Below are positions 33,069-35,524 of a stretch of DNA of 64,000 nt, one piece after another. The notes below the pieces were generated by a model. The model made no database searches. It had not been told where the DNA came from and saw nothing but the letters and a program-made list of their open reading frames with translations. The DNA is from an uncultured Planctomycetales bacterium (GTDB lineage: Bacteria > Omnitrophota > Gorgyraeia > Zapsychrales > CAYRXT01). Made by a program: the position numbers and the translations under genes. The first letter of the stretch is position 1, and each line of letters opens with the position of its first letter. Location: contig CAYRXT010000005.1 in NCBI GenBank assembly GCA_964428315.1, positions 12,592-76,591 on the forward strand, written 5' to 3'.

Positions 33069-34262
33069 TTATTCGGGATCGATGTAGGTGTAGGTATTGC
33101 CGGCGTAATTTCTCAGGACAAGCCGGCCTTGTTCCTTTGATACGACGTAATCCGGGCCGATGGGGATCTTGCCCCCGCCTCCGGGGCCGTCGATGACATA
33201 AGTGGGGACAGCGTAACCCGTGGTATGGCCGCGCAGTTTTTCCATGACATTGATCCCGGCCGCGACGGACGTGCGGAAATGACGGGATCCCGATATCGGG
33301 TCGCACTGGTAAATGTAATACGGCCTGACCCGGATCTTCAGGAGCTCATGCATCAGTTTTTTCATGACGGCGGGCTTGTCGTTGATCCCCTTCAGGAGGA
33401 CCGTCTGGCTGCCCATGGGTATGCCGTGATCGGCGATCAGATCGCAGGCGAATTTGACGCGCTTGGTGATCTCCTTGGGATGGTTAAAATGAATGCTCAT
33501 CCAGACGGGGCCGTTTCTCCGCAGGAGCCTGACGAGGTCTTCGGTGATGCGCTGAGGCAGCGTCACGGGGACCCGGGTTCCGATACGGATGAATTCGACA
33601 TGGGGAATGGCCTTGATATTCCTGAGGATATCTTCGAGCATGTGGTCGCTCAGGGTCAAAGGATCCCCTCCTGATATCAGGACATCGCGGATCTTCTTGT
33701 TGGAACGGATGTAGTCATAGGCGGCCTCATAGGTGGACGGCCTCAGCGTCCTTCGCCCTTCGCCGACCATGCGCGAACGCGTGCAGTACCGGCAGTACAT
33801 GGCGCACATCTCGTTGACCAGAAAAAGGACGCGGTCGGGATACCGATGGACGAGCCCGTGCACGGGAGAATCCTTTTCTTCCCCGCAGGGGTCATCGAGC
33901 TCCTCGGGTGAACGCACCAGTTCATCCGCCTGTGGGATGCACTGCTTGCGAACCGGACAGTTCGGATCTTCGGTGTCCATAAGACTGGCGAAATACGGCG
34001 GGATCGACATAGTCAGCTTTTTGCCGCACCCCTCCACACCCTTCTCCTCCTCGGGGGTCAGCGTGACGAGCCTGGCCAGGATATCTTTTGTGCGGATACG
34101 GTTACGCAGCTGCCAGCGCCAGTCCTCCCAGTCCATGGGCGTCGCGTCCTTATAAAAATTGATGACCCGGTGCTCCTTGGACGTCAGGTGGATTGCCGGC
34201 TGGACCTGCTGTTCAGGCGCGATGTCTACGCCGGTTTTTACCAGATTTTCCGATGGATTCAT
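33069..34262 (-). CDS. kamA: Lysine 2,3-aminomutase (KamA family radical SAM)
   Basis: CAMYCRYCTRS (CxxxCxxC), PLP-binding region, 397 aa (KamA length rather than EpmB/YjeK). Confidence 0.85.
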   Translation of the reverse strand: MNPSENLVKTGVDIAPEQQVQPAIHLTSKEHRVINFYKDATPMDWEDWRWQLRNRIRTKDILARLVTLTPEEEKGVEGCGKKLTMSIPPYFASLMDTEDPNCPVRKQCIPQADELVRSPEELDDPCGEEKDSPVHGLVHRYPDRVLFLVNEMCAMYCRYCTRSRMVGEGRRTLRPSTYEAAYDYIRSNKKIRDVLISGGDPLTLSDHMLEDILRNIKAIPHVEFIRIGTRVPVTLPQRITEDLVRLLRRNGPVWMSIHFNHPKEITKRVKFACDLIADHGIPMGSQTVLLKGINDKPAVMKKLMHELLKIRVRPYYIYQCDPISGSRHFRTSVAAGINVMEKLRGHTTGYAVPTYVIDGPGGGGKIPIGPDYVVSKEQGRLVLRNYAGNTYTYIDPE

Positions 34263-35284
34263 TGGCCTTTCTCCTTTTGCTGACCGTTGTGCAAACCGTT
34301 GCGCTCAAGTCCGCAATGAATAATCCGGTGGATCATCTGTTCATAGGTCTGCCCCATGCAGCGGGGAATGTAGCTGAAAACATCTTCGAGGGCCAGGCAC
34401 GGCAGGGGGTTGATCTCCAGGACATAGGGCCGCCCATCCTCGTCGACCCGGAAATCCACCCGGCCGAAGTCACGGCACTCCACGCTGCGGTAGACCCTGA
34501 GTGCCAGTTCCTGCAGTCTCCGGGCCATATCGTCCGGGATCCCGGCCGGACAGACATAACGAAGGTTATCCGATGAAATCCTCTCAAACGTATAAAAATC
34601 GTCGCCCAGGTCAGTCTTCCCGTCGATCTGCACCTGCACAACGGGAAGGGCCTCGGGCGGCTCGTTGCCCACCACCGCAACCGTGAACTCCGTTCCGCGG
34701 ATGAACTCCTCGACCAGGGCGGACTGCTTATAGACGCGGGTGATCAGCTCGACCTGCCGGAGGAGTTCTTCGTGGTTCGTTACCCGGGAACGCGCGGACA
34801 ATCCTTTGGACGAACCTTCGGCACGGCATTTCACGATCAGGGGAAATCCAATCGTGTTCAGGTCTTCCAGCCCCCTCGTGCTTCCCGCTTCAAAAAAACG
34901 GGGCGTCGGAATGCCTTCGGCCAAAAAAAACTTTTTGGCCATCACTTTATCCAGGGTGATCCCCAGGGTCAAGGCGTCGGATCCTATGTACGGGATGCCG
35001 CGCATTTCCAGGATCAGCGGCACCTGGGATTCCCGGTTGCGCCCCCCGGCACCCTCGGCGAGGTTAAAGACAATATCCACGTCCAGCCCGTCGATCTGCT
35101 GGATCAGGTTCTTCACGTTCCCTATGCGTTTGACGAGAAAACCGTTGGTTTCAATGGCGGCGGCGAGGTCATCGATGACTCTAGGCGGGTCGAATTCGGC
35201 GTTGATGTCGCAGGGATCGCCCGGACGGGGATTCCAGTCGGTCTTAAGATCGTATGTCAGGCCAATGATTCTCTTTCTTTCCAT
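34259..35284 (-). CDS. ATP-grasp ligase, D-alanine--D-alanine ligase (Ddl)-like
   Basis: Ddl-like N domain (RIIGLTYDL...), central ATP-grasp (FPLIVKCRAEGSSKG...EEFIRGTEFTVAVV) and C-terminal Mg/ATP site (DFGRVDFRVDEDGRPYVLEINPLP). ATGA overlap with kamA. Confidence 0.8.
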   Translation of the reverse strand: MERKRIIGLTYDLKTDWNPRPGDPCDINAEFDPPRVIDDLAAAIETNGFLVKRIGNVKNLIQQIDGLDVDIVFNLAEGAGGRNRESQVPLILEMRGIPYIGSDALTLGITLDKVMAKKFFLAEGIPTPRFFEAGSTRGLEDLNTIGFPLIVKCRAEGSSKGLSARSRVTNHEELLRQVELITRVYKQSALVEEFIRGTEFTVAVVGNEPPEALPVVQVQIDGKTDLGDDFYTFERISSDNLRYVCPAGIPDDMARRLQELALRVYRSVECRDFGRVDFRVDEDGRPYVLEINPLPCLALEDVFSYIPRCMGQTYEQMIHRIIHCGLERNGLHNGQQKEKGQ

Positions 35285-35297
35285 GGACAAAAAAACA

Positions 35298-35320
35298 GGA
35301 ACCTCTCTTTCAGCGGTTCC
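35298..35320 (-). promoter_or_regulatory. Leader hairpin plus U7 tract immediately 5' of the ATP-grasp/kamA start codon
   Basis: Minus-strand RNA reads GGAACC-GCUGAAAGAGA-GGUUCC-UGUUUUUUUGUCC-AUG. The stem-loop and U-tract occupy the position where an SD would be. Confidence 0.45.
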
Positions 35321-35524
35321 CGGATATAGATAGACCTTTCAATAGAAACGTCCCCACTTGTTTAAACAGCCTTAATAAAAGCCTTCGCCGAACCAGGCTC
35401 GTATCTTTTCTGTCTCATCTTCCGTCGACATAGTCATCACCAAATCGTAAATTTTCACAATTTTTTTATCATATACCTTTCGGGTTGTCAAGACATTACG
35501 GAACTAATCTTTCCGCGCGTATTC

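Follow-up and report, generated by a model that had tools for sequence, protein, structure and literature searches.

A predicted attenuator leader in front of a conserved ATP-grasp ligase–lysine 2,3-aminomutase operon of Omnitrophota

The DNA analysed here, a 64-kb stretch of contig CAYRXT010000005.1 from an uncultured Omnitrophota bacterium (called the window), contains a gene pair composed of a Ddl-fold ATP-grasp ligase gene and kamA, which encodes a lysine 2,3-aminomutase (LAM). The pair is the Omnitrophota form of a conserved operon, in which the ligase is translationally coupled, by an ATGA overlap, to a truncated KamA. It is preceded by a leader with its own predicted promoter, a short open reading frame (ORF) and a terminator-like hairpin that almost touches the ligase start codon. 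Considering the anatomy and conservation of these elements, we give slightly better than even chances to a reading in which the leader works by ribosome-dependent attenuation plus reinitiation, and the ligase and KamA make a beta-lysyl small molecule. The ligase most likely forms the amide bond that would put beta-lysine into a small, peptide-like compound. The comparison set consists of 80 Omnitrophota loci from a genome collection (571 loci were detected overall); the orthologue of the window ligase is named grasp1, and all window genes described below lie on the minus strand.

The leader and the start of the ligase gene

The leader is held by the 240-nucleotide (nt) intergenic stretch between an NRAMP transporter gene (36781-35525) and the ligase gene (35284-34259), which encodes 341 amino acids (aa) and has no Shine-Dalgarno (SD) sequence of its own. 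An intrinsic-terminator-like hairpin of 8 bp is predicted on the minus strand at 35322-35296 (CGGGAACC...GGUUCCUG; -14.6 kcal/mol, z = -2.7), followed by a U7 tract (35295-35289), GUCC and the ATG, the U-tract ending 4 nt 5' of the start codon. An earlier sequence-only reading of the window had placed a hairpin and U7 directly against this ATG, which is borne out, and an orthologous hairpin with a T-run precedes the grasp1 start in most of the 80 loci. The helix is GC-rich (GGGCUC/GAGCCC, or GGGAACC/GGUUCC in the window clade). RNAalifold applied to 54 leaders recovered it with compensatory changes in seven of its eight pairs; no second conserved helix was found in these 54 leaders, and both an aptamer and an alternative antiterminator helix were dropped. 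In about 40 loci the gap between the U-tract and the ATG is 2-11 nt, which leaves no room for a promoter, and therefore every operon transcript is expected to cross the terminator. By its position, the leader element is thus a predicted attenuator.

The predicted promoter, also on the minus strand and near-consensus with an extended -10, consists of a -35 TTGACA (35491-35486), a 17-nt spacer with TG and a -10 TAAAAA (35468-35463). In the 64-kb window a single exact copy of TTGACA-N14-TGNTAAAAA is found against 0.01 expected, and 55 Omnitrophota loci likewise have one copy each, invariably 100-300 nt upstream of grasp1 and on its strand; a looser pattern is present in 62 of 79 loci. The shared unit has a constant order: TTGACA, the 17-nt spacer with TG, TAAAAA, some 40-60 nt further GGAGG, then 12-14 nt on the motif AA(A/G)TTG(G/A)AAAAA, the hairpin 19-27 nt past its TTG, and the U-tract. 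The predicted leader is about 170 nt long in the window and 105-125 nt in most relatives. Both promoter and terminator were missed by a promoter/terminator scanning tool, since the hairpin has a loop of more than 8 nt and position 6 of the -10 element is not a T.

A covariance model, R1, was built from the 54 leaders and searched over 884 kb. It gave exactly one match per locus, just upstream of grasp1, in 70 of the 80 loci and in the window, including 17 loci outside the model seed; there was no other match in the 884 kb and none before non-Omnitrophota homologues. Searches of Rfam returned no relevant match at E up to 10 for the window and up to 1 for seven canonical loci. As the terminator is, in addition, the sole conserved helix, a riboswitch is unlikely. 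The proposal of the sequence-only reading that the operon is leader-controlled has thus gained ground, with hairpin and U7 belonging to a conserved leader that has its own predicted promoter, and its riboswitch option has lost it.

The same reading had noted that the hairpin could simply terminate the NRAMP operon. This was rejected: the conserved promoter lies in between, and the element recurs behind unrelated upstream genes, the gene 5' of the leader being NRAMP, MgtE-N, a 245-aa protein of unknown family or others, depending on the locus. Several further candidates were checked by eye in the alignments, and nothing consistent was found for pairing of an A-tract with the U-tract as an antiterminator, for sigma-54 or second-promoter readings of AAATTGGAAAAA, or for a Rex or CRP box around the -10 element. 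As a separate observation, ACAATAT/ATATTGT repeats stand on both sides of the -10 element and of the predicted start of transcription in many loci (35491-35440 in the window, and the equivalent promoter regions of L015-L054), and in one subgroup the repeats around the -10 change together (GTGGTA...TACTAC). They look like an operator for a DNA-binding regulator.

The second conserved property of the leader concerns translation. The anti-SD duplex energy in the 17 nt upstream of the ligase ATG is -2.7 kcal/mol. The earlier claim that the gene lacks an SD therefore stands as regards a usable one; the hairpin loop and 3' arm do contain an SD-like AGAGAGG, at a distance of 11 nt from TTG 35290 and of 17 nt from the ATG, where it would be sequestered and badly spaced. 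The SD-less state of grasp1 is conserved, with a median duplex energy of -2.85 kcal/mol and 86% of loci weaker than -6, compared with a median of -9.8 for kamA. Strong GGAGG SDs had been ascribed to the other genes of the region; this is correct for kamA and for the P-II, MgtE-N and DJ-1 genes and incorrect for folC and PAC2.

A conserved mini-ORF upstream, predicted to have an SD of its own, accounts best for the absent SD. In the window, an SD-like GGGGA (35351-35355, minus strand) stands 8 nt before the mini-ORF TTG AAA GGT CTA TCT ATA TCC GGG AAC CGC TGA (35342-35310, minus strand), reading MKGLSISGNR and stop. The ORF runs into the 5' arm of the terminator and has its stop codon in the loop, 25 nt upstream of the ATG; its TTG lies 20 nt before the hairpin base. 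This distance is 19-27 nt in nearly all loci (five fall outside this range, at 11-29 nt) and is nearly constant although the intervening sequence varies. The TTG is kept in at least 90% of leaders and replaced solely by ATG (eight loci). Of the 16 leaders in the MEKIG subgroup, 12 have a stop as their sixth codon, written as TAG, TAA or TGA. Among ten loci with a long leader ORF and a U-tract no more than 21 nt from the ATG, the ORF crosses hairpin and U-tract in nine, and these nine ORFs end in a TGA overlapping the grasp1 ATG (as ATGA, once as TGATG), an arrangement that reads as classical translational coupling. The leader TTG is accordingly taken as a predicted start codon because of its exchange for ATG only, its fixed distance to the hairpin, the three stops and the nine overlaps. 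The sequence of the leader peptide is not conserved, and its length ranges from one codon (a bare start-stop) to 27. The closest relative has the canonical mini-ORF TTG AAA TAA, and in most of about 68 mini-ORFs the second or third codon is AAA, for lysine.

The window clade contains, in addition, a micro-ORF of 21 codons (MTMSTEDETEKIRAWFGEGFY and stop; 35437-35372, minus strand), which crosses a small hairpin at about 35400-35379. Kindred micro-ORFs of 19-22 codons are found in L091 (1257-1325) and L092 (MLIMSTEEMFDKIFAHVHEGFY and stop), in L071 (ending in SGEFY and stop) and in L001. Their four distinct sequences (L092 repeats L091) differ by TTT/TTC and TAA/TGA exchanges and an in-frame 3-nt indel, which suggests coding, either for a real small protein or for a second leader peptide. 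It was also observed that in L016, L026, L038, L040, L042 and L054 40-270 nt of long perfect palindromes (such as GGGCATAACTTATG...CATAAGTTATGCCC) lie between the terminator and the grasp1 ATG; these may be repetitive extragenic palindrome (REP)- or miniature inverted-repeat transposable element (MITE)-like elements, or a second structured region.

The ligase, the aminomutase and their linkage

The kamA gene (34262-33069) encodes 397 aa without the C-terminal domain, has its own AAGGAG SD, and its ATG overlaps the ligase-gene TGA as ATGA. Its length, the CxxxCxxC motif (here CAMYCRYC) and the overlap agree with the sequence-only reading. The order grasp1-(grasp2)-kamA is essentially universal among the 80 loci where the contig is long enough, grasp2 being a second ligase paralogue (about 37% identical) that stands between grasp1 and kamA in most Omnitrophota species. 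One ligase gene is present in the window clade, where NRAMP or MgtE-N lies upstream and P-II, S21, DJ-1 and purH lie downstream; the ligase and kamA genes of the closest relative, L091 (71% identity), again share a 4-nt overlap. The linkage of ligase to kamA, for which a genome-context search had been proposed earlier, holds at over 70 loci and also outside this phylum. The two genes are a conserved functional unit, and the ligase is not a stray Ddl. The pair was also rightly described as unlike the known kamA contexts, with no kamDE/kdd/kce, epmA or ablB-type GNAT gene adjoining. Among the kamA neighbours (ATP-grasp, NRAMP, MgtE-N, P-II, S21, DJ-1 and purH), kamDE, kdd and kce do not occur; there is no GNAT homologue in the window, the flanking genes on both sides belonging to other families. 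In the literature on kamA, ATP-grasp enzymes, the Omnitrophota aminomutase and EF-P, no description of a ligase-kamA pair was found.

The ligase was correctly assigned to the ATP-grasp type, and its length is corrected from 340 to 341 aa, counted from ATG 35284; from TTG 35290 it would be 343 aa, as in the database copy P0001. A later true start with its own SD, which had been named as an alternative, was ruled out by the N-termini of 21 homologues (M-K-x-(I/V)-G-L-T-Y-D), according to which the start is not downstream of 35284. The closest family members, 60-71% identical, all come from Candidatus Omnitrophota. Pfam Dala_Dala_lig_C matches the protein at 5.9e-37, and its AlphaFold model (pLDDT 88) has the Ddl fold over the full length, with Foldseek TM values of 0.76-0.86 to solved Ddl structures. 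The protein nevertheless falls under every curated NCBIfam Ddl cut-off; the best score is 177.2 against 243 (NF002378), and TIGR01205 gives 150.5 against 245.65.

Comparison with E. coli DdlB (2DLN) indicates where the difference lies. The ATP, Mg and catalytic residues K144, E148-S150, R255, D257, E270 and N272 are all kept, as K152, E156-S158, R275, D277, E290 and N292. By contrast, the residues by which Ddl binds D-alanine (Glu15 in GGxSxE, Tyr216, Ser281/Leu282) are not found in the ligase. The D-Ala1-binding GGxSxE motif with Glu15 is absent and the ligase has the acidic IGLTYDLKxDW...D26, A29-E30, D32; H63 is replaced by E77, with HGxxGEDG becoming an invariant EGxxGRNRESQ; Y216 corresponds to I236, at a variable position; and S281, which holds the D-Ala2 carboxylate, is replaced by D301, conserved in at least 90%. 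Since the catalytic residues are kept and the D-Ala pockets rebuilt, acyl-phosphate/amide chemistry is probably retained while both substrates differ. The ligase would thus keep the Ddl acyl-phosphate machinery with both D-alanine pockets replaced by conserved, largely acidic residues, and such pockets would suit cationic substrates such as beta-lysine.

KamA aligns with the LAM of Clostridium subterminale (2A5H) at E = 1e-139 and keeps CAMYCRYC (C125/C129/C132), the carboxylate-binding R134, D293 and D330 for the epsilon-amine and the pyridoxal phosphate lysine K337. The conservation of the lysine-binding residues indicates that the substrate is free L-lysine, not glutamate or arginine, which KamA would convert to beta-lysine. 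The last residue of KamA corresponds to position 368-369 of the 416 in 2A5H. The protein is without the C-terminal multimerisation/Zn region (C268, C375, C377, C380), C268 being replaced by K, and so departs from the clostridial LAM architecture, in which the C-terminal multimerisation domain carries a Zn site. Loss of this domain is a hallmark separating YjeK/EpmB from LAM (PMC2821294). The scores, which exceed the cut-off for the KamA family (TIGR00238, 352 against 199), are best among NCBIfam models for AblA, slightly below its cut-off (TIGR03820, 508.4 against 525.4), and far from that of EpmB (TIGR03821, 241.8 against 369.3); by score, KamA is classified as AblA/LAM-like and not EpmB-like.

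The ligase family extends beyond Omnitrophota. A profile search of 1.8 billion representative proteins gave more than 150 clusters (at 50% identity) scoring far above true Ddl, many of them fused double ligases of 650-790 aa. The neighbours of nine distant members were looked up. Four contigs, one from Elusimicrobiota, one from Myxococcota and two others, have a kamA gene beside or near the ligase gene; a GNAT gene stands 3' of the ligase gene in three of the nine, Myxococcota-type clusters among them; and a Peptidase_S58 gene directly follows it in three (L081, L084 and L090). The partnered KamA proteins of other phyla are 48-63% identical to that of the window, and three of the four are likewise without the C-terminal domain, the Myxococcota one (456 aa) having a longer tail. 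Peptidase family S58 includes DmpA and BapA. These two enzymes cleave off N-terminal beta-amino acids, for example from beta-alanyl dipeptides, and carnosine synthase is an ATP-grasp enzyme (PMC9235088). The kamA, GNAT and S58 contexts argue against a stray Ddl and lend support to the idea, put forward in the sequence-only reading, of a beta-lysine-containing, peptide-like small molecule. It is also worth noticing that L081 is the cultured Lujinxingia litoralis (QHKO01000004.1), where the ligase-family gene is followed by a Peptidase_S58 gene of the DmpA/BapA type.

Proposed mechanism, product and competing explanations

The SD and the mini-ORF are the sole conserved features able to modulate the terminator, and ribosome-dependent antitermination is therefore proposed. 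A ribosome translating the mini-ORF, or terminating on it, would cover or melt the 5' arm of the hairpin and block the terminator; the same ribosome would then reinitiate at the nearby SD-less grasp1 ATG. Leader transcripts without translation would end at the U-tract, and expression of the operon would thus be gated by translation of the leader. The candidate signals are general translational capacity, or the supply of Lys-tRNA at the AAA codon of the mini-ORF; the latter would make sense for an operon that consumes lysine, switching it on when lysine is present. The anatomy of pyrBI/pyrE/ampC-type attenuators is found here, that is, a promoter, an ORF with a ribosome binding site, a terminator before the first gene, and an ORF that ends in or near this terminator. 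The enzymes would make a dipeptide of the form beta-lysyl-X or, in species with two ligases, an oligo- or tripeptide.

A number of facts weigh against parts of this proposal. More than 30 nt, and up to 267 nt, are inserted between terminator and ATG in 28 of 69 loci, hence reinitiation is not universal. The spacing of 12-14 nt between GGAGG and TTG, compared with 7-8 nt at kamA, is odd for an efficient start, and mini-ORFs of 1-3 codons stop 10-20 nt before the hairpin, where a terminating ribosome would reach the stem only marginally. Sensing of Lys-tRNA is made less attractive by the existence of start-stop mini-ORFs and by the fact that A-rich codons are common after start codons anyway. 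The window itself is not a typical case: its leader carries an extra module, and its R1 match (35366-35289) reaches 28 bits at E = 0.46, though it is in the seed. On the enzyme side, no S58 or GNAT genes were found near the Omnitrophota operon when these were looked for. Finally, termination, read-through, translation of the mini-ORF and the product are all inferred from sequence.

Two other explanations of the leader were considered. Promoter, SD, mini-ORF and terminator may form an independent gene for a small RNA or micro-peptide, the ligase operon being expressed by constitutive leakage; a discrete unit with a near-perfect predicted promoter and a good terminator would fit this, as would the extra sequence that separates it from the grasp1 ATG in 28 loci and the conserved micro-ORF of the window clade. 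However, the unit occurs solely in front of grasp1, about 40 loci have its U-tract 2-11 nt from the SD-less ATG, a stop-start overlap couples the leader ORF to grasp1 in nine, and the peptide of the mini-ORF is not conserved, which makes a functional micro-protein unlikely; we consider an independent gene unlikely, though it should be kept in mind. Control by a factor, in which a TRAP- or PyrR-like protein or a small ligand binds GGAGG...AAAUUGRAAAAA and the mini-ORF is incidental, would account for conservation at the nucleotide level (the GAA/AAA wobble positions and the 12-14 and 19-27 nt spacings are fixed), and the inverted and direct repeats around the -10 suggest a DNA-binding regulator. 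Against it stand the lack of an Rfam match and of any conserved structure besides the terminator, hence of an aptamer, and the signs that point to translation, namely the change of TTG to ATG only, three different stop codons at one position and the ATGA coupling. Such control is regarded as clearly improbable.

As for the enzymes, the pair could act on a protein, the ATP-grasp ligase attaching beta-lysine to EF-P or to a ribosomal protein in the manner of EpmA. In favour of this, the operon belongs to the core of the phylum, KamA resembles YjeK/EpmB in the missing multimerisation domain (PMC2821294), and translation-related genes are among the neighbours (rpsU, and in 33-35 loci an EF-G paralogue and a YchF-like gene), the last point counting also against a small-molecule product. 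Yet the EpmB model scores 242 against its cut-off of 369 when AblA reaches 508, the GNAT and S58 peptidase genes of the distant homologues suggest small-molecule metabolism, and the known Ddl-fold enzymes all act on small substrates. Neither epmA nor efp was found in the window or the 80 loci, the latter in a tblastn search with an E. coli EF-P query. Protein modification is therefore given a still smaller probability than control of the leader by a factor. The last alternative is an ordinary D-Ala-D-Ala ligase placed beside kamA by chance, with the hairpin as terminator of NRAMP, a possibility that the sequence-only reading had itself raised. The best sequence and fold matches of the ligase are all Ddl, and certain public annotations name it so; the scores under every NCBIfam Ddl cut-off, the changed D-Ala1 and D-Ala2 binding residues, the kamA linkage in more than 70 loci and other phyla, and a hairpin that lies 3' of a conserved promoter and recurs behind unrelated genes make this explanation almost certainly wrong. 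Attenuation by a leader ribosome, together with a beta-lysyl small molecule, is the reading retained below.

If attenuation of this kind is confirmed, an ORF of 1-27 codons with a long SD spacing would veto a terminator and hand its ribosome to an SD-less gene, and the device may read Lys-tRNA or translational capacity. The metabolite, if real, would be made by a module of C-truncated KamA and Ddl-derived ligase, with or without GNAT or an S58 beta-aminopeptidase; this module recurs in Elusimicrobiota, Myxococcota and Bradymonadia (Lujinxingia), which would imply a widespread beta-lysine peptide metabolism. It is possible, though we would rather doubt than expect it, that both novelties are true and linked, namely a phylum-specific class of attenuators and a beta-lysyl amide or oligo-beta-lysine metabolite at the core of Omnitrophota. 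Bacteria of this phylum are abundant and mostly uncultured, many with very small cells, and a nearly universal, tightly controlled operon marks a physiological function of theirs that is not yet understood. Should peptides of beta-lysine indeed be what the ligases make, beta-amino-acid metabolism would gain a new branch, with homologues in at least three other phyla, and the cultured Lujinxingia litoralis among the carriers makes the chemistry directly accessible. The leader, for its part, would be a compact natural arrangement that packs transcription termination and translation initiation into a few shared nucleotides; it would be useful for studying transcription-translation coupling beyond model organisms and adds a cis-regulatory family absent from Rfam.

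Neighbouring genes and relation to known systems

Downstream of kamA, a P-II-like gene (100 aa; 32938-32636) is followed further along by rpsU (S21), a DJ-1/PfpI gene, purH and folC. Its product matches PF00543 and keeps the TGxxGDGKI and RTGEE motifs; by comparison with E. coli GlnB, about 12 residues of the T-loop are missing, including the Tyr51 position. The short-T-loop P-II-like gene described earlier is thus confirmed. Its own promoter-like site (33030-33002) and its presence in a subset of loci (L039, L047, L048, L049 and L063) indicate that it is probably a neighbour rather than part of the system. In the two-ligase clade, kamA is followed by a short EF-G paralogue (651 aa) and by a 233-aa protein consisting of the YchF C-terminal domain only (L025 9221-11886, and 33-35 other loci). 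These genes and the rpsU of the window make the operon neighbours translation-related and leave a role in protein modification open.

Directly upstream of the leader, the two-ligase clade has a gene for a 245-aa protein without Pfam match (L025 5064-5801; 31 loci), preceded by PAC2, HAD and AIR-synthase-like genes; the window PAC2 gene is at 40506-39475. In the window, an MgtE-N/CBS/PRC protein gene (38084-36783) precedes NRAMP, with 1 nt between its stop and the NRAMP start codon. It encodes a soluble protein of 433 aa with a PRC-barrel, the MgtE N-domain and CBS, without the MgtE membrane domain, and may be a Mg/Mn-sensing regulator of the NRAMP transporter.

The closest model for the leader is given by pyrBI, pyrE and ampC of E. 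coli, in which a leader ORF, down to a bare start-stop, abuts or crosses a terminator and the ribosome prevents termination; these attenuators need no alternative antiterminator helix. The Omnitrophota leader has the same layout of promoter-proximal ORF and intrinsic terminator. It differs in phylum and target genes, and in that the terminator touches an SD-less start; here the leader probably also supplies the ribosome to the ligase gene. It is best described as a putative new attenuator family, restricted to Omnitrophota by the searches made and absent from Rfam.

For the enzymes, the logic of PylB/PylC offers one parallel: a lysine mutase of the radical-SAM type supplies a non-protein amino acid, which a Ddl-like ATP-grasp enzyme then joins to an amine. 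The window pair would follow the same logic. On the other hand, PylB is not known to belong to the KamA family, there is no pylD/pylS context here, and no PDB entry named PylC was among the sequence matches of the ligase at E up to 0.001. With DdlA/B and VanA, the ligase shares the three-domain ATP-grasp fold, the ATP-binding Lys, the EGSS loop, Arg255 and the Mg ligands; it differs in its rebuilt substrate pockets and in having kamA, not mur/fts genes, as its context. AblA/AblB, which make the compatible solute N-epsilon-acetyl-beta-lysine in methanogens and some bacteria, are similar in that a KamA-family enzyme feeds an adjacent tailoring enzyme; the window KamA matches AblA best (508 bits), and in Myxococcota-type clusters a GNAT gene follows the ligase. 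The partner in the window is, however, an ATP-dependent amide ligase and not an acetyltransferase, GNAT is missing from the window, and KamA is without the C-terminal domain and just below the AblA cut-off.

EpmB (YjeK) and EpmA combine a truncated KamA-family enzyme (PMC2821294) with an ATP-dependent ligase that then installs beta-lysine, and in this they resemble the pair described here, although the ligase is of ATP-grasp type instead of a paralogue of class II aminoacyl-tRNA synthetases, the EpmB cut-off is missed and there is no linkage to efp. Carnosine synthase (beta-Ala-His) and Ngg of N-acetylglutaminylglutamine amide (NAGGN) synthesis are ATP-grasp enzymes that use a beta- or N-acylated amino acid to build a small cytoplasmic dipeptide, and the pairing of GNAT with ATP-grasp recurs in distant homologues of the ligase; no close sequence relationship is detectable, and the analogy is one of chemistry alone. 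Judged by scores, residues and gene context, the pair is therefore placed outside the Ddl, AblAB, EpmAB and lysine-fermentation sets.

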